A stretch of DNA of 64,000 nt, taken from contig CAZAOJ010000002.1 in NCBI GenBank assembly GCA_964486745.1, forward strand, positions 2,958 to 66,957, given 5' to 3'. Every line of letters starts with the position of its first letter. Position 1 is the stretch's first letter. Shown one piece after another: positions 11,828 through 24,610 of the stretch. The position numbers and the translations under genes were made by a program. This DNA is from an uncultured Arcobacteraceae bacterium. Its GTDB lineage: Bacteria; Campylobacterota; Campylobacteria; Campylobacterales; Arcobacteraceae. Below the pieces are notes generated by a model. That model worked only from the letters and a program-made list of their open reading frames with translations. It was not told where the DNA came from and did not search any database.

Positions 11828-13843
11828 ATGAATAACAACCAGAATAAAAACGATAATAATAACAATAACTTTTTTAATAAAAATCCAATACTAATTTTTG
11901 CAATGTTTTCAATTGTAACAATTTTAGTATTTAAATCATTGTTTCCACAAGATGGTGGTGAAACAACTGTAACACCATATGGTCAAAAGCAAAAAAGTGT
12001 AACATACTCAGAATTGAAGCAGTTAATTAAAGATGGCAAAATCCAATATGTTGGAATTGGTGATACAACTTTAAAAGCTATATCAAAAAATGCAAATGGA
12101 ACAAAAGCTACATATCATGTAAGAAGAGTAGTTCCTGATAATACTTTAATACCATTGCTTGAAGAACAAAATATTGAATATGGCGGGATAAATGAAGAAA
12201 ATCTTTTAGCAGATATGTTATTTGGTTGGGTTTTACCATTGTTTATATTCTTTGGAATTTGGATGTTCTTAGCTAATAGAATGCAAAAGTCAATGGGTGG
12301 CGGAGGAGGAATCCTTGGCATGGGTGGCGCTAAAAAGATGATAAATAGTGAAAAACCTAATGTTAAATTTGAAGATATGGCAGGAAATAAAGAAGCTAAA
12401 GAAGAAGTTTCAGAGATTGTTGAATTTTTAAGAAATCCTGATAGATATGTAAAACTTGGAGCACAAATTCCAAAAGGTGTACTTTTAGTTGGACCTCCTG
12501 GTACTGGTAAGACACTTTTAGCAAAAGCAGTTGCAGGTGAAGCAGATGTTGAATTTTTAAGTGTAACAGGATCATCTTTTATTGAGATGTTTGTTGGAGT
12601 TGGAGCTAGTAGAGTTAGAGATTTATTTGAACAAGCAAAAAAAGTTGCCCCTGCAATTATATTTATTGATGAGATTGATGCAATTGGTAAAAGTCGTGCA
12701 AGTGGTGGAATGATGGGTGGTAATGATGAACGAGAGCAAACTTTAAACCAACTTTTAGCAGAGATGGATGGATTTAGTAGTGCTGCAGCTCCAGTTATTA
12801 TACTTGCTGCAACTAATAGACCAGAAGTACTTGATCCAGCACTTTTAAGACCAGGAAGATTTGATAGACAAGTTTTGGTTGATAAACCTGATCTTGAAGG
12901 AAGAATTGAGATCTTAAATGTACATATCAAAGATGTAAAATTAGGAAAAGATGTAGATTTAAGAGAAGTTGCTGTTATGACTGCTGGACTTGCAGGAGCT
13001 GATCTGGCAAATGTTATAAATGAAGCTGCACTTCTTGCAGGTCGTGCAAATAAAGAGGAAGTAACTGCAGAAGATTTTAAAGAAGCAGTTGAGAGACAAA
13101 TTGCTGGACTTGAAAAGAAAAGTAGAAGAATTTCTCCAAAAGAAAGAAGAATTGTTGCTTATCATGAATCTGGACATGCTTTAATTGCAGAGATTACAAA
13201 AGGTGCTAAAAAAGTTAATAAAGTAAGTATAGTTCCTAGAGGTTTAGCAGCTCTTGGATATACTTTAAATACACCACAAGAAAATAAATATTTAATGCAA
13301 AAACATGAGCTTATGGCTGAAGTTGATACATTATTAGGTGGACGAGCAGCTGAAGAAGTATTTATTGGTGAGATTAGTACAGGTGCTGGAAATGACCTTG
13401 AAAGAGCAACTGATATAATTAAATCTATGGCTACAATTTATGGTATGAGTGATGATAGTGTTGCTGGACTTATGGTACTTACAAAACAAAATAACCAATT
13501 TTTAGGTGGCGGTCAATCAACTAAAGATTATAGTGATGAGATGGCATTTACACTTGATAATTATATTAAGAAAGTTTTAAATGATAGATATAATGAAGTA
13601 TTGCAAACTTTAAGAGATAATCGTGAAGCTATGGAAGAGATGACTGCAGAACTTCTTGATATTGAAGTGATTAGTGGTAAACGAGTTCAAGAAATAATTA
13701 AACAAAATGGTGGTGTTATATTTGAAGATGAAGATCTACATCATGAAGCAGTTGAGGAAACTGAAAATACAGAACAAGAAGATGTAAAACAAAATGATAA
13801 TACAGAAGAATCATCAAATAATGATGAAAAAGCCAAAGATTAA
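11828..13843 (+). CDS. ftsH: ATP-dependent zinc metalloprotease FtsH
   Basis: Two TM helices, AAA+ Walker A GPPGTGKT, Walker B IIFIDEID, SRH, HESGHA zinc site, and an acidic C-terminal tail. Confidence 0.97.
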   Translation: MNNNQNKNDNNNNNFFNKNPILIFAMFSIVTILVFKSLFPQDGGETTVTPYGQKQKSVTYSELKQLIKDGKIQYVGIGDTTLKAISKNANGTKATYHVRRVVPDNTLIPLLEEQNIEYGGINEENLLADMLFGWVLPLFIFFGIWMFLANRMQKSMGGGGGILGMGGAKKMINSEKPNVKFEDMAGNKEAKEEVSEIVEFLRNPDRYVKLGAQIPKGVLLVGPPGTGKTLLAKAVAGEADVEFLSVTGSSFIEMFVGVGASRVRDLFEQAKKVAPAIIFIDEIDAIGKSRASGGMMGGNDEREQTLNQLLAEMDGFSSAAAPVIILAATNRPEVLDPALLRPGRFDRQVLVDKPDLEGRIEILNVHIKDVKLGKDVDLREVAVMTAGLAGADLANVINEAALLAGRANKEEVTAEDFKEAVERQIAGLEKKSRRISPKERRIVAYHESGHALIAEITKGAKKVNKVSIVPRGLAALGYTLNTPQENKYLMQKHELMAEVDTLLGGRAAEEVFIGEISTGAGNDLERATDIIKSMATIYGMSDDSVAGLMVLTKQNNQFLGGGQSTKDYSDEMAFTLDNYIKKVLNDRYNEVLQTLRDNREAMEEMTAELLDIEVISGKRVQEIIKQNGGVIFEDEDLHHEAVEETENTEQEDVKQNDNTEESSNNDEKAKD

Positions 13844-13883
13844 ATAATTTTTGGCTATAATATTTAATATCTTAGGAGGAAAC

Positions 13884-13958
13884 ATGAAAAATACTATAAA
13901 CTACATAAAAAATACAAGAACTACTGTACTCCTACTTCTACTGGGTAACTTACTCTAA
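13884..13958 (+). CDS. candidate leucine-rich leader peptide upstream of leuA (24 aa)
   Basis: AGGAGGA Shine-Dalgarno at 13874-13880, ATG at 13884. The peptide is MKNTINYIKNTRTTVLLLLLGNLL*, with five consecutive Leu codons (ctc cta ctt cta ctg) plus two more. It lies in the 199-nt gap between ftsH and leuA. Confidence 0.5.
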   Translation: MKNTINYIKNTRTTVLLLLLGNLL

Positions 13959-14042
13959 AGTATAAAATATAACATTTTATAAAAATTAAGAACCAGTTGA
14001 ATTTTTAAAATTCCATAATGACTTTTTAGAAGGTAAAATTAC

Positions 14043-15602
14043 ATGATAAACGAAAACAAAATATTAATATTTGATACAACATTAAGAGATGGTGAACAAA
14101 GCCCTGGTGCTTCAATGAATACTGAAGAAAAAATTACTATAGCTCAACAATTACAAAAATTAGGTGTAGATATAATTGAAGCTGGATTTGCTGCAGCTAG
14201 TCCTGGCGATTTTGATGCAATTGCAAGAATTTGTGAAGTTGTAGATAGATCAACTGTTTGTTCACTTTCGCGTGCATTAGACAATGACATAAAAGCTGCC
14301 GGAGAAGCAATACAAAAAGCTAAAAATAATAGAATTCATACATTTATAGCAACTAGTCCTATTCATATGGAATATAAATTAAAAATGACTCCAGATCAAG
14401 TTATTAAAAAAGCTGTTGATGCTGTTACTTATGCAAGAACTTTTACTAATGATGTAGAATTTTCACTTGAAGATGCAGGAAGAAGTGAAATGTCATTTAT
14501 GAAAGAGATAACTGATGCAGTAATTAGTGCAGGAGCAAGTACTATAAACTTGCCAGATACTGTTGGATATAGATTTCCAAATGAGATTGCTGATATGGTA
14601 AAACAAATGGTTGCATTTGTACAAAATAGAGCAATAATATCATTGCATAATCATAATGATTTAGGATTGGCAGTTGCAAATAGTCTTGCAGGTATTGTAG
14701 CTGGGGCTAGACAAGTTGAATGTACAATAAATGGTTTGGGTGAAAGAGCTGGAAATGCTGCAGTTGAAGAGATTGTAATGGCATTAAAAGTAAGAGCAGA
14801 TTTATTTGAAAAACCATTTGAAACTTCAATAAATACTACTGAAATCTATCCTACAAGCAGATTAGTTGCAACGATTACAGGAATTGAACCACAACCAAAT
14901 AAGGCAATTGTTGGTAAAAATGCATTTTCACATGAGAGTGGAATTCATCAAGATGGAATATTGAAAAATGCACAAACATATGAAATTATGAGTGCGGCAT
15001 CTATTGGACTAGATAAAGAAAATACTTTAGTTTTAGGTAAACATTCAGGTCGTGCAGCATTTAAAGACAAAATTGAATATTTAGGTTTTGATAATATAAG
15101 TGAAGAGATTTTAAATCAAACTTTTGATAGATTTAAATTACTTGCAGATAAGAAAAAAGTGATAGTAGATGATGATATTAGAATGTTAATGACGGATGAA
15201 GCTATAAACCATACAAAAACATTTGAATTGATTTCATTGCAAATATCAGATTGTTCAAATGGAGTTCCTAGTGCAGCTGTTACAATAAAGCATAACGATG
15301 TAGAGATTACAGATGCAGGAATAGGTGATGGTGCTATGGATGCAATATTTAAAACAATTGATAGAATTACAGGATATAATGGTCAATTAAATGATTATAA
15401 AGTAAAAGCTGTAAGTGAAGGTAAAGATGCTTTAGCAAAAGTTGTGTGTAAAGTAACATTTAATGATGATAATCCATCTATGATTGGACATGGATTAAGT
15501 ATAGACACTATGGTTGCTAGTGCAAGAGCTTATCTTGGAGCATTAAATAGCTATTTAAGTATGAAAAATAGTTTAAATAAAAGTTCATCACACCAAGTAT
15601 AA
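14043..15602 (+). CDS. leuA: 2-isopropylmalate synthase
   Basis: [27 protein letters not shown], and a C-terminal LeuA dimerisation/regulatory domain. 519 aa. Confidence 0.96.
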
Positions 15603-15605
15603 ATT

Positions 15606-17186
15606 ATGATAAAAGAGCTTATACTAAGATTCGCATACTTTTTAGAAGGCTCTGATTTATATTATAATATAAAGCACTTCTTTTATCTTTTTTTAGAGGA
15701 TACTCGATCTGTACGAAAAAAATATTTTGATTTTATGATGATATTTTTGGTTTTAAGTACAGTTGGTATCCTTATTTACGAAGTAAATCATAAGCCAGAA
15801 TCTTGGTTAGATCAATATGAAACTTTTGCAATTATTGTATTTATATTAGAATGGTTAGCAAGATTATGGGTAGTAAATCATTCTCATAAAATTATTATAA
15901 AAGACTTTGAAAAAGCTCAACTTATAAATCAACCATACGATATAAAACAATCATTAAAAACAATTTTAAAAGAAAAACTTGCATTTATTTTTTCACCAAT
16001 GTCAATCATTGATCTATTAGCAATCTTACCATACTATAGACCTTTAAGAATTTTACGTATTCTAATGTTATTTAGATTATTTAAACTTTTAAGATATGCA
16101 AATTCTGTAAAACAGTTTAGTGATGTATTTGTAGAAAAAAGATTTGAATTTTTTACTCTTACAATTATGTTTTTGATGTCTATAACTTTTGGATCAGCAA
16201 TAATATTTATATATGAAGGGGCTGGTTCAAATCCAAATATTACAAATTTCTTTGATGCTATATATTGGTCAATCATTACAATATCAACCGTAGGATTTGG
16301 AGATATAACACCTGTAACTATTGAAGGTAGAGTAGCTACAATTTTTCTAGTAATTACAGGTTTATCTGTAATTGCATTTTTTACTTCTATTGTTACTACA
16401 GCACTAGGTGAAAAATTAATTGCACTAAAAGAAGAAAAGGTAATAGGTGAAGCAAATGCTCTAAAAGATTTTGTTTTAATTTGTGGATATGGACGAATGG
16501 GTGAAGTATTAGCAAAAGAATTTAAAAAAATAAAACAAAAATTTATTGTAATTGATTTAGATGAAGATCAATTTTTACATACAAATTCACAAAATATATT
16601 ATCTATAAAAGGGGATGCTTCTGATTCTGATTTTTTAGCACATATTGGTATAAATAAAGGTGCGAGTAGTATTATAGCTTTAACAGATAATGATGCTGTA
16701 AATCTTTCAATTGTATTAACTGCTAGAAGTTTAAATCCAAATATAAATATTATTGCAAGAGCAAATGATAAAAAAATTAAAAAGAAACTTTTTTTAGCAG
16801 GAGCCAATGAAGTGGTTGCAGCAAATGAGATTACAGGTTTAGTAGCTGCAGAGTACATAGGCCAGCCAATTGCATTTAATGCAATAGATGATATTTTATT
16901 AGATAATGAAGGAGCTCTTTTAGGGGAAATTGAAGTTTTTGAAAACTCTTTTTACAAAAATCATACACTTGAACATATAGAATTTGAGAATTTTAATTTG
17001 ACATTAATAGGTGTTATAGAAGCAGAAACTAAAAAATTTATATTTAATCCAAATCAAGAAGAATATGTATTAAATGAACATGATATATTGATTGTTATTG
17101 GATTTGAAGCTGCAATTAAATCTTTTAGAATAGAAATTTTATCACATAGACCTAAAGCTCTTGAAGATAAAAGTGAAGAGGTGTAA
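15606..17186 (+). CDS. 6-TM voltage-sensor-like K+ channel with C-terminal RCK (TrkA-N) domain, Kch-like
   Basis: S4-like RPLRILRILMLFRLFKLLR with a basic residue at every third position. Selectivity filter TVGFGD. Rossmann CGYGRMG followed by an RCK domain. Confidence 0.85.
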   Translation: MIKELILRFAYFLEGSDLYYNIKHFFYLFLEDTRSVRKKYFDFMMIFLVLSTVGILIYEVNHKPESWLDQYETFAIIVFILEWLARLWVVNHSHKIIIKDFEKAQLINQPYDIKQSLKTILKEKLAFIFSPMSIIDLLAILPYYRPLRILRILMLFRLFKLLRYANSVKQFSDVFVEKRFEFFTLTIMFLMSITFGSAIIFIYEGAGSNPNITNFFDAIYWSIITISTVGFGDITPVTIEGRVATIFLVITGLSVIAFFTSIVTTALGEKLIALKEEKVIGEANALKDFVLICGYGRMGEVLAKEFKKIKQKFIVIDLDEDQFLHTNSQNILSIKGDASDSDFLAHIGINKGASSIIALTDNDAVNLSIVLTARSLNPNINIIARANDKKIKKKLFLAGANEVVAANEITGLVAAEYIGQPIAFNAIDDILLDNEGALLGEIEVFENSFYKNHTLEHIEFENFNLTLIGVIEAETKKFIFNPNQEEYVLNEHDILIVIGFEAAIKSFRIEILSHRPKALEDKSEEV

Positions 17187-17189
17187 AAA

Positions 17190-17894
17190 ATGAAAAAAAA
17201 TAAAATTATCATATACAGCTTTACATCACTTGCAGCTCAAATAGCAAAAATATTGCATGCGAAAAAATATAAAATATTAATTATAGAAGAAAATGAAGAA
17301 TTAGCTTTAAAAGCCAAAGAATTGGGATATGATGTAAAACAAATATCATTAATGGAAGATGTAAATATTATAGATATTGGTATAAATGATGAAAATATTA
17401 AAGCATTTTTTTGTCTAGGAAAAGATAAAAATACAAATTTATTTATAACTTTAAGTGTTAGAAATATAAATAAACAAATTAGAATTATTTCTGTATCACA
17501 TTCTAAACAAGATAATAAAACAATGTTATTAGCTGGTGCAACAAAAACTATAAATCCATATGAAATTGGAGCACTAAGAATATTTAGGCTTTTACATAAA
17601 CCAACAATTTTAAGTGTATTAGATGATATTTTATTCAATCAATCTGATATTGAAGTAGCTGAAATCATTATAACTAAAGGGTCTATATTTGATGGAGTTT
17701 ATTTAGATGAACTAAAATCAGTAGATAGACAAAAAGTGATTATTTTGGGTATTCAAGATAAAGAGATTAGTGATGATTTTATTTTCTTTTCAACTGGAAT
17801 CAATCATAAAATTGATGAAGGTGATACTTTAGTAGTACTAGGGCATAAAAATGATCTTATTGAGTTTAAAAAAACTGTAGATAGTATTATTTAA
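17190..17894 (+). CDS. soluble RCK/TrkA-like regulatory protein (TrkA-N plus TrkA-C)
   Basis: 234 aa with no TM helix. Degenerate Rossmann start, and a C-terminal TrkA-C-like segment (EIIITKGSIFDGVYLDEL...GDTLVVLG). Starts 3 nt after the channel gene. Confidence 0.65.
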   Translation: MKKNKIIIYSFTSLAAQIAKILHAKKYKILIIEENEELALKAKELGYDVKQISLMEDVNIIDIGINDENIKAFFCLGKDKNTNLFITLSVRNINKQIRIISVSHSKQDNKTMLLAGATKTINPYEIGALRIFRLLHKPTILSVLDDILFNQSDIEVAEIIITKGSIFDGVYLDELKSVDRQKVIILGIQDKEISDDFIFFSTGINHKIDEGDTLVVLGHKNDLIEFKKTVDSII

Positions 17895-17920
17895 ATTATT
17901 AATAAAAAGGGAAATATTTA

Positions 17921-19876
17921 GTGAAGTTGCATATGTTTATAAATCTTTTAAAAGAATCTTTTAGAGATTTAGCACCAATTGTATTGGTGATATTATTTTT
18001 TCAATTGGCCGTTATTCAAACAATTCCACCAAATTGGATATCGACTACGGTTGGATTATTTATAGTTGCTATAGGATTAGCAATATTTTTATTAGGTTTA
18101 GAAATAGGTATATTCCCTGTTGGAGAAGGTCTAGCAAAGGATTTTGCCAAGCGTGGTAGTTCATTTTGGGTATTGATTTTTGGTTTTGCCATTGGTTTTG
18201 GTACGACTATTGCTGAACCCGCCCTTGTAGTTATAGCTCAAAAAGCTGCAGCAATTAGTAGTGGAAGAATTGATGCTACAACTCTAAGATTTGTAGTTGC
18301 TGGATCTGTTGGATTTGCTATATTATTAGGTGTATATCGTATTATAAAAGGGCATCCAATACACTATTATATAATTGCTGGATATGTTGCAGTTGTATCA
18401 ATTACATTTGCAGCTCCTAAAGAGATAATAGGGCTTGCATATGATTTAGGTGGAGTTACTACTTCAACCGTTACAGTTCCACTAGTAGCTGCTCTTGGAA
18501 TTGGATTAGCATCAAATATCAAGGGAAGAAATCCTGTAATTGATGGCTTTGGTTTAATTGCTTTTGCTTCTCTTACTCCTATGATTTTTGTACAAATTTA
18601 TGGAATTGCAGTATATAATTTAGTGGATGCAAAAGATGTATTACATGTAATATCTGAAGTTGAAGCTGTTCCTACAAATGTAACTCTAAATTCATTAGTT
18701 AATGGAATATTAGGTGTTATAAAAGATATTATTCCAATTTTAGCAATTATTTTATTTTTTCAATATGGAGTAATTAGAAAAAATATTAAAAATATAAAAA
18801 CTGTATTTTTAGGTTTTGTATTTGTGGTAATTGGTTTATATGCTTTTATTTTAGGACTAGAATTAGGATTGTTTTCACTTGGTGAAAGTATGGCAGCTGA
18901 GCTTACAGCAACTGGGTCTAGTTGGATTATATATACTTTTGGATTTGCTATAGGATTTGCTACAACCATGGCAGAACCTGCACTTATGGCAGTGGCAAAA
19001 AAATCAAAAGAGATTAGTGATGGAAAAATTAATGATTTTGCATTAAGACTTTTTGTTGCACTTGGTGTTGCTTTTGGTATAGCTTTAGGTTCATTTAGAA
19101 TTATAGATGGTGGGCATATTCATTATTATATTATTGTTGGGTATATGATTGTGATTGCATTAACATTTATAGCTCCAAAATATATAATACCAATTGCTTA
19201 TGATAGTGGTGGTGTTACAACTTCAACAGTTACAGTTCCTTTAGTAGCAGCTTTAGGAATTGGATTAGCTACAAATATTGAAGGACGTTCACCATTAATT
19301 GATGGATTTGGTCTAATTGCTTTTGCTTCATTATTTCCAATGATATCTGTTATGGCATATGGAATTATAAGTGAAAAATTTAATATAAAATCAGATACTC
19401 AAAAAGAAAAAGAGATAATGTCAAAACCTATATCTGAGGAAGAAGGCTCTAATCTTTCTCATGTAAATGTAGATGGTGGAACATTATTAGAGAAATTAAA
19501 TTTATCATTTTCTGCTGTTGTTGTAATAGTACCTCAAAATAAAAAAGAGGATGTACTACATGCAGCAAGGGATTATGGAGCAACAGGTGTAACGCATTTT
19601 AAAGCGCATGGAATGGGATTAGATGAGATGGATAATATTTTTAGATTTGAAGCAGAAGCTTCTGATGAAGTTTTATTATTTATTTTACCTGATAGCTTGG
19701 TAAATAAAGTATTAGATGGTATAATTCATAGATTACATATTACAAGTACTGGTGATGGAATAGCCTTTTCTATACCAATTAGTAATATGAAAGGTATTAG
19801 TGTAAGGCAAAAGCATACATTTGAAAATGAAATCAAAGATGAAATTAATAAAAAGATTCAAAAGGATAAGAGTTGA
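17921..19876 (+). CDS. fused tandem DUF1538 membrane domains plus C-terminal P-II-like domain
   Basis: Clear internal duplication: residues ~55-235 versus ~310-490 share FGFAIGF.TT.AEPAL, GGVTTSTVTVPLVAALGIGLA and IDGFGLIAFASL. The C-terminal ~110 aa (VVVIVPQNKKEDVLHAARDYGATGVTHFKAHGMG...) looks like a GlnB/P-II fold. Confidence 0.75.
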   Translation: MKLHMFINLLKESFRDLAPIVLVILFFQLAVIQTIPPNWISTTVGLFIVAIGLAIFLLGLEIGIFPVGEGLAKDFAKRGSSFWVLIFGFAIGFGTTIAEPALVVIAQKAAAISSGRIDATTLRFVVAGSVGFAILLGVYRIIKGHPIHYYIIAGYVAVVSITFAAPKEIIGLAYDLGGVTTSTVTVPLVAALGIGLASNIKGRNPVIDGFGLIAFASLTPMIFVQIYGIAVYNLVDAKDVLHVISEVEAVPTNVTLNSLVNGILGVIKDIIPILAIILFFQYGVIRKNIKNIKTVFLGFVFVVIGLYAFILGLELGLFSLGESMAAELTATGSSWIIYTFGFAIGFATTMAEPALMAVAKKSKEISDGKINDFALRLFVALGVAFGIALGSFRIIDGGHIHYYIIVGYMIVIALTFIAPKYIIPIAYDSGGVTTSTVTVPLVAALGIGLATNIEGRSPLIDGFGLIAFASLFPMISVMAYGIISEKFNIKSDTQKEKEIMSKPISEEEGSNLSHVNVDGGTLLEKLNLSFSAVVVIVPQNKKEDVLHAARDYGATGVTHFKAHGMGLDEMDNIFRFEAEASDEVLLFILPDSLVNKVLDGIIHRLHITSTGDGIAFSIPISNMKGISVRQKHTFENEIKDEINKKIQKDKS

Positions 19877-21228
19877 AAAAAACAAAAGATACAATAGATA
19901 GAATTAAAAAAAGTAATTGTGAAACAGATAAAACATTTTTTCAAGCCGTTGAAGAAGTAGTAGATAGTTTACAGCCAGTATTAGATAGTAATCCTATGTA
20001 TGAAAGACATGCAATAATGGAAAGACTAACTACTCCAGATAGACAATTTAAATTTAAAGTTGTATGGATGGATGATAAGCAAAATATCCAAGTAAATACA
20101 GGATATAGAATACAATTTAATAATGCACTTGGCCCTTATAAAGGTGGTTTAAGATTCCATCCAAGTGTAAATGCTGGTATTTTAAAATTTTTAGCATTTG
20201 AACAAATATTTAAAAACTCTTTGACTGGTTTACCTATTGGAGGAGCAAAAGGTGGAAGTGATTTTGATCCAAAAGGGAAGTCTGATTTTGAAATTATGAA
20301 GTTTTGTAGTGCATATATGACTGAACTTCATAAATATATAGGACCAAGAATTGATGTACCCGCAGGTGATATTGGAGTAGGGGGTAGAGAAATTGGATAT
20401 CTTTTTGGAGAATATAAAAAAATCACTTCTACATATGAAGGTGTTTTAACTGGTAAGCCATTTATGTTTGGTGGATCTTTGATGAGACCAGAAGCTACAG
20501 GGTATGGATGTGTATATTTTACAGATGAGATGCTTAAATATGCAGGTAAAAAAGGTTTTGAAGGAAGAGTTTGTACGGTAAGTGGAGCAGGTAATGTTGC
20601 TATTCATACAATAGAAAAGCTTTATGCTTTAGGAGCAAAACCTGTAACTTGTAGTGATAGTAGAGGTACTATTTATGATTCTAGAGGAATTGACTTAGAA
20701 CTTTTAAAAGATTTAAAATTAAATAAAAGAGTATCTTTAGAGAAATATTGTGAAAAAAATAGTGATGCAGTGTATGTAAAAGTTGAAGACTATCCAAAAG
20801 ATGGTCACTATGCTTGGACAATTAAATGTGACTGTGCATTTCCTAGTGCAACTCAAAATGAATTAACAGAAGTAGATGCTAAAAATCTTATAAAAAATGG
20901 TTGTATTAGTGTAAGTGAAGGTGCTAATATGCCTTCAACTCCTGAAGCAATTACTTTATTACAAAAAAATGATATATTATTTGCACCTGCAAAAGCAGCA
21001 AATGCTGGTGGAGTTGCTGTTAGTGAATTTGAGATGAGTCAAAATGCAGCAATGGCAAAATGGTCATATGAAATTGTTGATGAGAGATTAGAAAAAACAA
21101 TGAGATCAATTTGTAAAAGAGTTCATTTAACTGCTGAAGAGTATGGAGTTGCTGGTAATTATATGCATGGAGCAAATATTGCAGGATTTAAAAGAGTAGC
21201 TGATGCAATGATAGCTGAAGGTGTATAA
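19873..21228 (+). CDS. gdhA: NADP-specific glutamate dehydrogenase (TTG start overlapping the upstream stop by 4 nt)
   Basis: GPYKGGLRFHP, GGAKGGSDFDPKG (catalytic Lys), GAGNVA Rossmann motif. 451 aa. Confidence 0.95.
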   Translation: MKKTKDTIDRIKKSNCETDKTFFQAVEEVVDSLQPVLDSNPMYERHAIMERLTTPDRQFKFKVVWMDDKQNIQVNTGYRIQFNNALGPYKGGLRFHPSVNAGILKFLAFEQIFKNSLTGLPIGGAKGGSDFDPKGKSDFEIMKFCSAYMTELHKYIGPRIDVPAGDIGVGGREIGYLFGEYKKITSTYEGVLTGKPFMFGGSLMRPEATGYGCVYFTDEMLKYAGKKGFEGRVCTVSGAGNVAIHTIEKLYALGAKPVTCSDSRGTIYDSRGIDLELLKDLKLNKRVSLEKYCEKNSDAVYVKVEDYPKDGHYAWTIKCDCAFPSATQNELTEVDAKNLIKNGCISVSEGANMPSTPEAITLLQKNDILFAPAKAANAGGVAVSEFEMSQNAAMAKWSYEIVDERLEKTMRSICKRVHLTAEEYGVAGNYMHGANIAGFKRVADAMIAEGV

Positions 21229-21537
21229 TTGACTTTAGAAGATATATTAAATAATGATGAAGCTGTAGCAATATATTTTTCTGGTAAAAATTGTGGTGTA
21301 TGCCATGTGTTGCAACCAAAGATTAAATCATTACTTGAAACTTCTTTTCCTAATATTAAATATTATTCATTTGATGCACAAGAACAACAAGTTCTTGCTG
21401 CATCATTAAATGTATTTACAGTACCAACACTTTTAATATTTTTTGATAAAAAAGAGTTTATACGAAAATCAAGAAATATTTCTATATCTTTACTTGAAGA
21501 TGAAATTTCACGACCTTATAATATGATATTTTCATAA
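21229..21537 (+). CDS. thioredoxin-fold protein (CGVC motif)
   Basis: 102 aa. FSGKNCGVCHVL active-site-like CxxC and TVPTL cis-Pro loop. TTG start directly abutting the gdhA stop. Confidence 0.7.
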   Translation: MTLEDILNNDEAVAIYFSGKNCGVCHVLQPKIKSLLETSFPNIKYYSFDAQEQQVLAASLNVFTVPTLLIFFDKKEFIRKSRNISISLLEDEISRPYNMIFS

Positions 21538-21552
21538 TTTATAGGAACTTAT

Positions 21553-21978
21553 ATGAAAAATACAATATATATTATAGTAGTTATGTTTTTATTAGCACAA
21601 TTAATTCAACCAAATAAAACTAATCCAACTACAAATAAAGAATTGGAGATACAAACTCCAAAAAATATAAAAATTATTTTAAAAAAAGCATGTTATGATT
21701 GTCATTCAAATGAGACGACATGGCCTTGGTATAGCAAAATAGCACCACTATCTTGGACAATAGCTTCACATGTAAATGATGGTAGATCTTGGGTTAATTA
21801 TTCTATTTGGAATACATATACACAAGAAGAAAAAGATAAAAAATTAAAACAAACATTTAGAGCAATTTATGTAGCAATGCCTCCTAGTAGTTATATTACA
21901 TTTCATCAAAATGCAAACCTTTCATCTAGTGAACGTAAAGAAGTTCGAGATTGGATTAAAGAACTTGGTAAACATTAA
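21553..21978 (+). CDS. haem-binding-domain protein (CxxCH, exported)
   Basis: Signal or anchor helix, then CYDCHSNETTWPWYSKIAPLSW, which resembles the Haem_bd family signature. Confidence 0.7.
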   Translation: MKNTIYIIVVMFLLAQLIQPNKTNPTTNKELEIQTPKNIKIILKKACYDCHSNETTWPWYSKIAPLSWTIASHVNDGRSWVNYSIWNTYTQEEKDKKLKQTFRAIYVAMPPSSYITFHQNANLSSSERKEVRDWIKELGKH

Positions 21979-22535
21979 TGAATTTATGTGGTATAGATGA
22001 AGCCGGGCGTGGGCCACTAGCTGGTCCTTTAGTTGTTGCTGGAGTTGTTTTAAAAAATGATATTGAAGGTTTAAATGATTCAAAAAAACTTACTGAAAAA
22101 AAAAGAGAAATATTATATGAGCAAATTATATTAAATTCTTCTTATCATATTGTTAGTACTTCAAATGATACTATTGATGAAATTGGCTTAAGTAAAGCAA
22201 TAAAGAATAGTATAGAACAAATTATAAAAAATATAGATGCCAATGAATATCTTATGGATGGAAACACTTCATTTGGAATTAATATTTTACAACATAAAAT
22301 AAAAGCAGATGCAACTGTTAAAGAAGTAAGTGCAGCTTCAATTTTAGCAAAAGTTACAAGAGATAGGTTTATGTGCAGTTTATCAAAACAATTTGATAAA
22401 TATGAATTTGACAAACATAAAGGTTATGGGACTAAAAAGCATATAGAACTTATTAAAAAATATGGATTAAGCTCTTTACACCGCAAGAGCTTTAAATTAA
22501 AAGCTCTTGAGGAACAACCTAGTTTATTTAATTAA
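21978..22535 (+). CDS. rnhB: ribonuclease HII
   Basis: GIDEAGRGPLAGPLVVA, DSKKL, and the KGYGT..H motif. Confidence 0.93.
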   Translation: MNLCGIDEAGRGPLAGPLVVAGVVLKNDIEGLNDSKKLTEKKREILYEQIILNSSYHIVSTSNDTIDEIGLSKAIKNSIEQIIKNIDANEYLMDGNTSFGINILQHKIKADATVKEVSAASILAKVTRDRFMCSLSKQFDKYEFDKHKGYGTKKHIELIKKYGLSSLHRKSFKLKALEEQPSLFN

Positions 22536-24516
22536 CATCTAAAATTTTAGGTTCTGGTTTTCCAATATGGTAACCTTGTAGATAATCAACACCAAGCTTA
22601 GTTAATATATCTTCAATAGCTTGTGAATGAACTTTTTCTGCTACAACTTCAAGGTTTAAAGATTGGACCACTTTTACAATACTTTTAACAACTTTTAAAG
22701 AGTTTTTATCTGTATCTAAATTTTCAACTAATGAACTATCAAGTTTAATAATATCTATATTAAGATTTAAAATATAATTAAAGTTTGAGTATCCACTACC
22801 AAAATCATCAATTGCAATTTTTGCACCATAAGATTTAACTTGATTGATAAATACATTTAAAGCATCAAAATCTGATATCTCTTGAGTCTCAAGAAGTTCT
22901 ATAACTACACTTGAACTATATTTATATTCATCTAATAATTTAAATAATAGTTTAATTGTATCTTTATTCGTAATATCTTCAAGTGCAAAATTTAATGAAA
23001 ATTTTACTTTTGTATTTTTTGAAGTAAAGTAATCAAATGTACTTTGAATTAATTGTTGTGTCAATTGAGAGTATAAATTAGCATTTTGTGCTACTTCAAT
23101 AAAATAATCAGGAGTGTAAACCATATCTGCATCTTTTAATCTCATAAGAGTTTCATATTTAACAATTTTATTCTCTTTTGGAGATTTCATTGGTTGAAAA
23201 TATGGAACTATATTGTTGGACTGTAATGCCTCTTCAATTTTGTTTGACCAAATCATATGTTGCATATACTCATCTTCTAATTGAAAAGAATCATCATATT
23301 TTACTATATCTGTTCTTGTTTTTTTTGCGTATTCTAAAGCAAGTTCTGTTTTTTCTAGTGCTCTAGAATAATCATTAACTATAAATCCGATATGTATTCT
23401 AATATTTATATCTGTATATTTATATTGAAATTTATGAGTATTTATTGTTTTAATTAAACTTTTTAAATCTTTTTTTGTAATATCATATTTGTATAATAAT
23501 GCAAATTTATCTGCAGTTACTCTATAAACACTAACTTCTTTTTTTACTGTATCTTTTAATAATATAGCTAATTCTTTTAAAATGAAATCAGCTACATTTG
23601 TTCCATAGAAGTTATTTAATTGTCTAAATTTATCTATATCAATCAATGCTAAAGAAAATTTTTCTTTTGTCTCTAAATCTTTTTGTAATTTAATAAAATT
23701 ATAAATATTTGTCAAGCTATCAATGTATAGACTATTAATAAGTTTATCATAATAAAATTTTGTAGTTTCTAGTAGTTTATTAAAAGCATTTTGTAATGTA
23801 CCTATCTCTTCAATTGATGTATTTACATTTGCTTTTAAGCTTAAATCATTTGCATCAGATATTCTTTTAATTTCTTGTGTAAATTTTATAATTGGTGTTA
23901 CCATCTTTTTATTAATTACAAAGAAGAAAATATAAAAGAAAACTACAATAAATATTACAAAAAATAATAAGAAATAGTAAGTCATCATATCTAGTGATAT
24001 TTTAATATCGCTTGGAGGATATTTTATATCTAATACACCATTAACCTCTCCAGCTTTTGTATTATAATGACAAGTGATACAATCTTGAGTAACTTTCATT
24101 GGATATAAAAATCTAATACTTCCATCTTGCTCAATGATAAATTGTTCTTCACCTTTCATTGCTTTTTGAATTAATGGATCAGAGTCAACTATTTGTTTAT
24201 CATGTTTTATTATACCTAATATCTCTTCAACATTATGGCTTCTATAAGATGATACTTTCATTCCTTTTCTTACATATTCTAATCTTGATAATATTTTATT
24301 TAGATCTTCTTTCCCCCACCCCTCTTGCATTCTTGTATTCATAGTTTCAAAAATAAGTTCACTAGTTTTTCTTGCATCATCTTCTGCAAGATTATTTAAT
24401 GCAACATCTTTAATATATACAGTTGATAGTAGTAAAATAACGATACTTATAAATAAGAATCCAAATACTATTCTTATTATTAATTGTTTATTTGAAATAT
24501 AGTTTGTCGTTTTCAT
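22528..24516 (-). CDS. membrane sensor: periplasmic c-type-haem domain, HAMP, degenerate GGDEF, EAL phosphodiesterase
   Basis: TM, periplasmic domain with CITCH, TM, HAMP. The GGDEF position reads RVTADKF, which is degenerate. The EAL domain has ETLMR, DDFGSGYS, KLD and QGY. The track ORF starts at GTG 24531; the ATG at 24516 has GGAG 9 nt upstream. Confidence 0.82.
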   Translation of the reverse strand: MKTTNYISNKQLIIRIVFGFLFISIVILLLSTVYIKDVALNNLAEDDARKTSELIFETMNTRMQEGWGKEDLNKILSRLEYVRKGMKVSSYRSHNVEEILGIIKHDKQIVDSDPLIQKAMKGEEQFIIEQDGSIRFLYPMKVTQDCITCHYNTKAGEVNGVLDIKYPPSDIKISLDMMTYYFLLFFVIFIVVFFYIFFFVINKKMVTPIIKFTQEIKRISDANDLSLKANVNTSIEEIGTLQNAFNKLLETTKFYYDKLINSLYIDSLTNIYNFIKLQKDLETKEKFSLALIDIDKFRQLNNFYGTNVADFILKELAILLKDTVKKEVSVYRVTADKFALLYKYDITKKDLKSLIKTINTHKFQYKYTDINIRIHIGFIVNDYSRALEKTELALEYAKKTRTDIVKYDDSFQLEDEYMQHMIWSNKIEEALQSNNIVPYFQPMKSPKENKIVKYETLMRLKDADMVYTPDYFIEVAQNANLYSQLTQQLIQSTFDYFTSKNTKVKFSLNFALEDITNKDTIKLLFKLLDEYKYSSSVVIELLETQEISDFDALNVFINQVKSYGAKIAIDDFGSGYSNFNYILNLNIDIIKLDSSLVENLDTDKNSLKVVKSIVKVVQSLNLEVVAEKVHSQAIEDILTKLGVDYLQGYHIGKPEPKILDVN

Positions 24517-24610
24517 AAATATAGTCTCCACATCGTGTTACATTATTGTAACATAAGGAAGATTAATATATCTATATGTTACAATTTCAAAAATTATTAA
24601 AAGGGATAAA

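Follow-up and report, generated by a model that had tools for sequence, protein, structure and literature searches.

We focus here on a gene at positions 17921..19876 (+ strand) of a 64,000-nucleotide stretch of DNA from an uncultured Arcobacteraceae bacterium (assembly GCA_964486745.1, contig CAZAOJ010000002.1; the whole stretch is called the window below), and on its relation to gdhA, the glutamate dehydrogenase gene that follows it. The gene encodes, in one chain of 651 amino acids (aa), two copies of the membrane domain DUF1538, termed A and B, and a C-terminal P-II-like domain, as seen in the open reading frame (ORF) and its translation, in Pfam and NCBIfam profiles and in AlphaFold 2 (AF2) models. 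The ORF starts with GTG, with an AAGGGA Shine-Dalgarno-like site 8 nucleotides (nt) upstream; an alternative ATG at 17933 gives a 647-aa form, which is also present in database records. An earlier note on this DNA, made from the letters alone, had read the protein as an internal duplication still visible at the nucleotide level, with a fused P-II-like domain, and had quoted motifs common to both halves. All of this holds. The Pfam scan that the note had proposed as a check returns DUF1538 twice plus P-II: DUF1538 (PF07556) is matched in two stretches with a total of 456 bits (cut-off 22.6; E 1.4e-137), which places the protein in the family, and P-II (PF00543) is matched at residues 532-626 with 34.6 bits, above the gathering score of 25. 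The motifs are found in both DUF1538 halves, which are 56% identical over 229 residues, ungapped (E 8e-83), and a repeat search recovers the trace of the duplication in the DNA at 18171..18470 (+), the partner copy at 18930-19229 being 67% identical over 300 nt at a spacing of 759 nt.

The two membrane halves can be told apart by profile, alignment and loop charge. The N-terminal half (residues 6-229; 17936..18607, +) is UmpA-like and the C-terminal half (residues 259-490; 18695..19390, +) UmpB-like. When scanned alone, the N-half scores 294 bits with the NCBIfam UmpA model and 196 with UmpB, and the C-half 249 bits with UmpB and 235 with UmpA; each half thus prefers its own model and the A-then-B order is preserved. 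The 516 bits of the whole protein on the UmpA model are both halves summed and no sign of equivalog membership. Across an alignment of 82 family members, extending down to ~25% identity, E99, P100 and D175 in the first half and E352 and D428 in the second are invariant, and the carboxylates among them form two symmetric membrane pairs at helix breaks (AEP; D-x-GGVTT). The Lys+Arg content of equivalent loops alternates in opposite phase between the halves, with means (half 1 vs half 2) of 2.79 vs 0.99 for the N-terminus, 0.24 vs 3.01 for loop 1, 2.80 vs 1.01 for loop 2, 2.24 vs 0.50 for loop 6 and 0.65 vs 3.65 for the C-terminus. The positive-inside rule thus predicts the first half to be N-in/C-out and the second N-out/C-in, so that the two would lie antiparallel in the membrane, with the C-terminus and its P-II-like domain in the cytoplasm.

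The AF2 models are of good quality, with a mean predicted local distance difference test (pLDDT) score of 86.4 for the full length and, for residues 1-500, a pLDDT of 87.3 and a predicted template modelling score (pTM) of 0.87. A sequence search with the membrane part found no match among PDB chains at E up to 10, and Foldseek with the 500-residue membrane model found none in the PDB at E up to 0.001, with a template modelling (TM) score of at most 0.22. A wide VIA-align search with the same model reached Z 7.0 at best, for a helical bundle of vinculin, and the transmembrane domain of MgtE scored Z 5.9; these values fall in the noise range for helical proteins. In the ESM Atlas, DUF1538 clusters alone match it (TM 0.93-0.96), all else reaching at most 0.28. 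Such empty fold searches are no proof of a new fold.

The earlier note had held DUF1538 proteins to be uncharacterised, which is not the case. UmpAB of Halomonas zhaodongensis was cloned by complementing E. coli KNabc; both subunits are required, they form a heterodimer, and the activity is a pH-dependent Na+(Li+,K+)/H+ antiport (PMC5484666). The umpAB clone stopped at umpB and is hence silent on any P-II gene that might follow it in Halomonas (PMC5484666). DUF1538 is also among the ion-transport features that predict growth pH (PMC13255231). The protein in the window resembles UmpAB in that both halves belong to the same Pfam family, follow the A-then-B order and constitute two homologous seven-helix modules, needed together, with the AEP and D-x-GGVTT motifs and the membrane carboxylates. 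On the other hand, UmpA and UmpB are two polypeptides for which no P-II partner has been studied, whereas A, B and the P-II-like part form one chain here, known from sequence, and each half reaches roughly half of the equivalog cut-off. Separate subunits are in fact absent from all of the Campylobacterota with a match: DUF1538 is present in 46 of 301 genomes of the phylum, and in all 46 both halves share one frame, of ~500 aa or of ~640-690 aa, as they do here.

The membrane part is followed by a charged, poorly ordered linker of ~35 residues (491-525; 19391..19495, +), for which AF2 gives block mean pLDDT values of 48-49 at residues 501-520, with 505-514 below 50, then by the P-II-like domain (residues 526-634; 19496..19822, +) and finally by a Lys/Glu-rich C-terminal tail (19823..19873, +), which DSSP assigns as a helix over residues 631-650 of the AF2 model and which, in the tail alignment, varies in length among relatives. 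Pfam, VIA, Foldseek and a residue comparison characterise the domain as a ferredoxin-like P-II fold with a short T-loop and a GDG B-loop. VIA aligns 92-95 residues of the modelled domain with SbtB (Z 10.5), a canonical PII (10.3) and CPII (10.2), with a root-mean-square deviation of 2.6-3.5, and Foldseek gives a probability of 1.00 with TM by target of 0.6-0.79; structure searches with the whole model are dominated by this domain. The profile match, together with the predicted ferredoxin-like beta-alpha-beta x2 fold, places the domain in the P-II superfamily, and the model shows it to have the P-II fold.

It does not follow that the domain senses what P-II proteins sense. When aligned with solved P-II proteins and with the genome's own two GlnK-type proteins, the domain keeps G35/G37, at the beta2/T-loop base, and the B-loop GDG. 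R38 is replaced by L, Q39 by D or a variable residue and K90 by I; K58 lies in a deleted loop; R101/R103 and Tyr51 are absent, and the T-loop is shorter. By this comparison the canonical ATP/2-oxoglutarate effector residues have been lost, and the domain lacks the residues that define a canonical GlnB/GlnK protein. Since these residues are replaced or deleted, the domain is not a 2-oxoglutarate/ATP sensor by homology, and the earlier note's rationale, that P-II senses 2-oxoglutarate, cannot be transferred to it. The genome also holds two canonical glnK-amtB pairs (contigs C28:714-2283 and C53:3893-5381), each with a 112-aa P-II that carries GDGKIF and a full T-loop; ordinary nitrogen sensing is thus encoded elsewhere.

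The domain may form a homotrimer. A prediction with three copies of residues 520-651 gave an interface score (interaction prediction score from aligned errors, ipSAE) of 0.81, against 0.01 for the best control, a value that may owe something to solved P-II trimers memorised by the model; in the calibration of this score, the mark was reached by 20 of 30 solved one-chain pairs and by 1 of 23 single chains. Three runs agreed in at least 94% of contacts, with a partner pLDDT of 76. The arrangement invites comparison with AmtB-GlnK and SbtA-SbtB, where a P-II-fold protein is likewise genetically coupled to a membrane transporter; SbtB, PII and CPII are among the domain's top structural matches, and a homotrimer is predicted here too. 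The differences are, however, substantial: the membrane partner here has an unrelated fold and is not known to form trimers, the P-II part is joined to it by a covalent bond where theirs act in trans, and neither the canonical ATP/2-oxoglutarate residues nor the long plugging T-loop is conserved.

The earlier note had set the fusion off against a usual arrangement of separate genes, but it is neither unusual in this group nor special to this locus. A word-index search gave 3993 matches among proteins of 358-1140 aa, and the best 120 of these are nearly all proteins of ~650 aa with both Pfam domains, from Arcobacteraceae or other Campylobacterota. When 3570 family matches were clustered at 50%, the full-length triple fusion fell essentially into one cluster. 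It is present in 80 species-level genomes and is the normal form in the Arcobacteraceae sampled and in a second family of Campylobacterales. An assembly or frameshift artefact was considered as its cause and rejected, the frame being uninterrupted in ~80 independent species genomes. Carriage of the fused form by plasmids or mobile elements was not seen: no plasmid match reaches 60% identity or extends over 80% of the protein.

Twenty loci were sampled in other Campylobacterota. Four are fused and 16 carry unfused DUF1538, 12 of the latter as A-B genes of ~500 aa and four as more distant forms of 511-670 aa; the transporter part is 51-72% identical to ours in the 12 nearer loci and 23-35% in the four distant ones. 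At 14 of the 16 unfused loci, a called P-II-like gene (111-125 aa, once 194 aa) adjoins DUF1538, often with a 4-nt overlap, and its product is 23-35% identical to the C-terminal domain studied here. In a maximum-likelihood tree of the membrane parts, the 25 P-II-fused proteins (21 from Arcobacteraceae and 4 from the second family) group together in a single clade (support 100/100), which is nested among forms whose P-II gene is separate. A single fusion event would thus suffice, and the tree points to one origin of the fusion within Campylobacterales. In one Campylobacterota genome (locus L092:5360-9502), the ORF after the A-B gene starts P-II-like (32% identity over 63 residues) and runs on over a frame of 1380 aa. 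Its product may be P-II joined to a large protein encoded downstream, or the frame may be an artefact of a simple ORF-calling script.

The arrangement of an A-B gene with a separate P-II-like gene extends from other Campylobacterota to Clostridia and other phyla. As the earlier note had stated, there are lineages that encode A, B and P-II separately; this is seen outside the phylum at locus L106, which also has a CBS gene, and in RefSeq plasmid annotations that read 'DUF1538 domain-containing protein | P-II family nitrogen regulator'. Another locus outside the phylum (L107) has a fused A-B gene (614 aa), a 120-aa gene and then P-II. The unfused loci share with ours the homologous transporter and P-II-like parts and their tight gene coupling; the P-II-like protein is a chain of its own there, whereas here each transporter carries one such domain on its ~35-residue linker. 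DUF1538 transporters are thus conservedly paired with a P-II-like protein, either separate or fused, and the covalent fusion is Rosetta-stone evidence; the transporter and P-II-like parts would therefore work together. Our literature search on DUF1538, UmpAB, PF07556/PII-like and P-II superfamily domain architectures brought up no paper that describes either the pairing or the fusion, and a preprint on valve-plug P-II proteins makes no mention of a DUF1538-P-II pairing. What is new relative to published work is accordingly the pairing and its covalent form, both abundant in databases, in a family with one characterised, two-subunit member.

Three variants were noted in passing. First, at L106:1942-2559, a CBS-domain protein and a heavy-metal-associated (HMA) protein directly follow the separate A, B and P-II genes, and would represent a further nucleotide-sensing module and a metal link. 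Second, the 120-aa protein between the A-B and P-II genes at L107:6071-6433 has no Pfam match and may be a second, more divergent P-II-like subunit. Third, a metagenomic relative of 724 aa (P0126) has two DUF1538 domains 57% identical to ours, but its C-terminal domain is a cytidylate-kinase-like/AAA_18 P-loop domain and not a P-II-like one; this suggests that one regulatory module can be exchanged for another and that nucleotides are read by both versions.

Downstream of the transporter gene lies gdhA (19873..21228, +; 451 aa), which scores as an NADP-specific glutamate dehydrogenase, with 690 bits against a cut-off of 536 for the equivalog NF006929 and both ELFV dehydrogenase domains (PF00208 and PF02812). 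The 4-nt overlap described in the earlier note is real: the transporter's TGA stop (19874-19876) overlaps the TTG of gdhA (19873-19875), and an AAGGA site lies 6 nt before that TTG. The next in-frame ATG would drop conserved N-terminal sequence; the two closest relatives have ATG at the equivalent position. A scan for consensus promoters and terminators told little in DNA this rich in AT (75 promoter-like sites vs 82 expected), with no terminator-like site at the transporter-gdhA junction.

The adjacency of the two genes is not conserved. Among 80 species loci, 74 have sufficient downstream flank, and gdhA directly follows the transporter gene in two of them, L006 (84% identity) and L007 (78%), which are the window's closest relatives. 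The direct downstream neighbours elsewhere are Trx and/or Haem_bd genes (40/74) or other genes (32/74). In three other lineages gdhA lies upstream, ~1.3 kb away in L030 and before leuA in L048 and L068. Furthermore, a gdhA match is found in 32 of 61 family genomes, and the presence of the two genes is uncoupled: one genus (g5) has the transporter without gdhA and another (g2) gdhA without DUF1538. At the 20 loci of other Campylobacterota families, neither gdhA nor the channel nor RCK gave a match. The gdhA of the window is placed precisely after the transporter gene and before trx, and so looks inserted into the otherwise conserved order ftsH-leuA-(channel-RCK)-transporter-trx-Haem_bd; the thioredoxin-like gene trx (21229..21537, +) and the Haem_bd gene (21553..21978, +), both identified by Pfam, are the usual downstream neighbours in relatives and are displaced here by gdhA. 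The transporter-gdhA homeostasis module that the earlier note had proposed, and for which it had named lack of conserved adjacency as evidence to the contrary, is not borne out by these counts.

The genes upstream of the transporter are better conserved. As the earlier note had seen, they comprise a K+ channel and an RCK gene, and Pfam domains and the TVGFGD filter bear this out. The first (15606..17186, +) encodes a six-transmembrane voltage-sensor-type K+ channel with a C-terminal RCK part (TrkA_N + TrkA_C), the filter sequence and an Arg-rich S4-like helix, and the second (17190..17894, +) a soluble RCK protein (TrkA_N + TrkA_C), assigned from Pfam and synteny. Of 72 informative Arcobacteraceae loci, 35 have this pair immediately upstream of the transporter gene and 26 have leuA there. 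The pair is limited to Arcobacteraceae, where its distribution is patchy across the two main branches of the tree; it is a frequent but dispensable neighbour, better conserved than gdhA. This context fits a role in monovalent-cation handling, although it is not proof of one.

Taking these observations together, we consider it probable, if well short of certain, that the gene encodes a cation/proton exchanger of the UmpAB family in a single chain, that a non-canonical P-II-like domain which forms trimers regulates it in cis, and that gdhA is a genus-specific positional neighbour. In this mechanism, the inverted-repeat DUF1538 part would be a secondary transporter, most likely a monovalent cation (Na+/K+/Li+)/H+ exchanger, with the invariant membrane carboxylates E99/D175 and E352/D428 carrying the ion or proton. 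The P-II-like domains of three chains would form a trimer under the membrane, and a small ligand, possibly an adenine nucleotide and not 2-oxoglutarate, would cause this trimer to open or plug the transporters in cis, by analogy with the action of GlnK on AmtB and of SbtB on SbtA, both of which occur in trans. In one genus with a compact genome, gdhA would have been inserted after the transporter gene, ahead of trx, and may be co-transcribed there by position and not as part of a conserved module. The more specific proposal, that the fused domain trimerises and so assembles three inverted-repeat transporters on one hub, that it gates them in cis with a ligand other than 2-oxoglutarate bound in a non-canonical way, and that the P-II-like partner acts directly on DUF1538, we advance tentatively, as a possibility that is on balance doubtful. 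If true, P-II-controlled transport would comprise a third class, distinct in mechanism from AmtB-GlnK and SbtA-SbtB.

Several observations weigh against this interpretation. First of all, the ion specificity rests on one characterised relative, UmpAB, and on a heterologous assay. Second, both halves fall well under the equivalog cut-offs, with 294 bits against 490 for the N-half (UmpA, NF041627) and 249 against 500 for the C-half (UmpB, NF041628), so that the substrate could differ from that of UmpAB. Third, the GDG motif varies in the separate P-II-like homologues, and no ligand can be named from the P-II-like domain. Finally, the tight gdhA junction is kept in the window, L006 and L007 (-4, 0 and -1 nt, respectively), and selection for co-expression is possible within this clade.

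The last point leads to the alternative of a genus-specific K+-glutamate osmoadaptation operon, a recent link in which channel, RCK protein, K+(Na+)/H+ exchanger and glutamate dehydrogenase are co-expressed so that K+ and its counter-ion glutamate rise together. Accumulation of K+ glutamate is the primary osmotic response established in other bacteria, and the four genes are indeed co-directional, with gaps of 3, 26 and -4 nt; the junction with gdhA is tight in all three genomes of the clade, and gdhA lies within a few kb of the cluster in L030, L048 and L068 as well. Equally tight packing, however, joins genes that are unrelated (leuA-channel 3 nt, gdhA-trx 0 nt, Haem_bd-rnhB -1 nt), so that the stop/start overlap is weak evidence of a functional link, and about half of the family genomes have no gdhA match. 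We therefore consider such an operon unlikely.

A second alternative keeps the P-II regulation and changes the substrate: the protein would be a P-II-regulated transporter or channel for something other than an alkali cation (an anion, a metal or a metabolite), the antiport of UmpAB being a side activity or specific to the Halomonas branch. The sub-threshold equivalog scores speak for it, as does the membrane fold, which matches no solved transporter, so that a mechanism cannot be borrowed from a known fold. Known P-II-like partners, furthermore, regulate chemically diverse transporters (AmtB, SbtA and NrtBCD, from PDB titles), and the close relative P0126 has a cytidylate-kinase-like nucleotide-binding domain where ours has P-II. 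Nevertheless, the sole experimental datum for the family is a cation/proton antiport (PMC5484666), and cation handling agrees with the invariant carboxylates of the membrane part as well as with the K+ channel/RCK genes that recur next to it; we regard a different substrate as quite unlikely. A nitrogen/2-oxoglutarate or ammonium homeostasis module, in which P-II would sense 2-oxoglutarate and ATP/ADP and gate a transporter working with glutamate dehydrogenase, can draw on the P-II match and fold, on the genuine stop/start overlap with an NADP-specific enzyme and on the tight junctions kept in the two closest species, but is made very improbable by the absent canonical ligand residues and Y51 and the shorter T-loop, by the two canonical amtB-glnK pairs, by the adjacency at 2 of 74 loci with gdhA presence uncoupled from the transporter across genera, and by the lack of gdhA, channel and RCK matches in the other families.

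The single-chain exchanger with a P-II-like regulator in cis, if correct, bears on a wider question. P-II proteins are among the most widespread signal transducers, and few of their transporter targets are understood. The pairing of DUF1538 with a P-II-like protein is widespread and no paper on it was found, while the membrane domain has neither a solved sequence homologue nor a convincing structural match. The Arcobacteraceae fusion offers a one-polypeptide construct that is well suited to questions of P-II-like regulation, ligand and stoichiometry, and culturable hosts exist, such as Malaciobacter canalis and Poseidonibacter species. As to annotation, the name 'nitrogen regulatory protein PII' should be avoided for this gene, the protein does not qualify for the UmpA or UmpB equivalog names, and adjacency to gdhA is unfit for inferring the function of the transporter.

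The wider neighbourhood is a long co-directional string. Nine genes, ftsH, leuA, K+ channel, RCK, transporter, gdhA, trx, Haem_bd and rnhB, occupy positions 11828-22535 (+) of the window; from leuA to rnhB they are separated by 3, 3, 26, -4, 0, 15 and -1 nt, and their functions are unrelated. Overlaps of this kind are the norm in this genome, which is 2.0 Mb in size with ~28% G+C. The string is ended by a convergent gene at 22528-24531 (-), which encodes a HAMP-GGDEF-EAL protein of 667 aa, a cyclic di-GMP turnover protein whose GGDEF domain looks degenerate (54 bits, against 198 for EAL).

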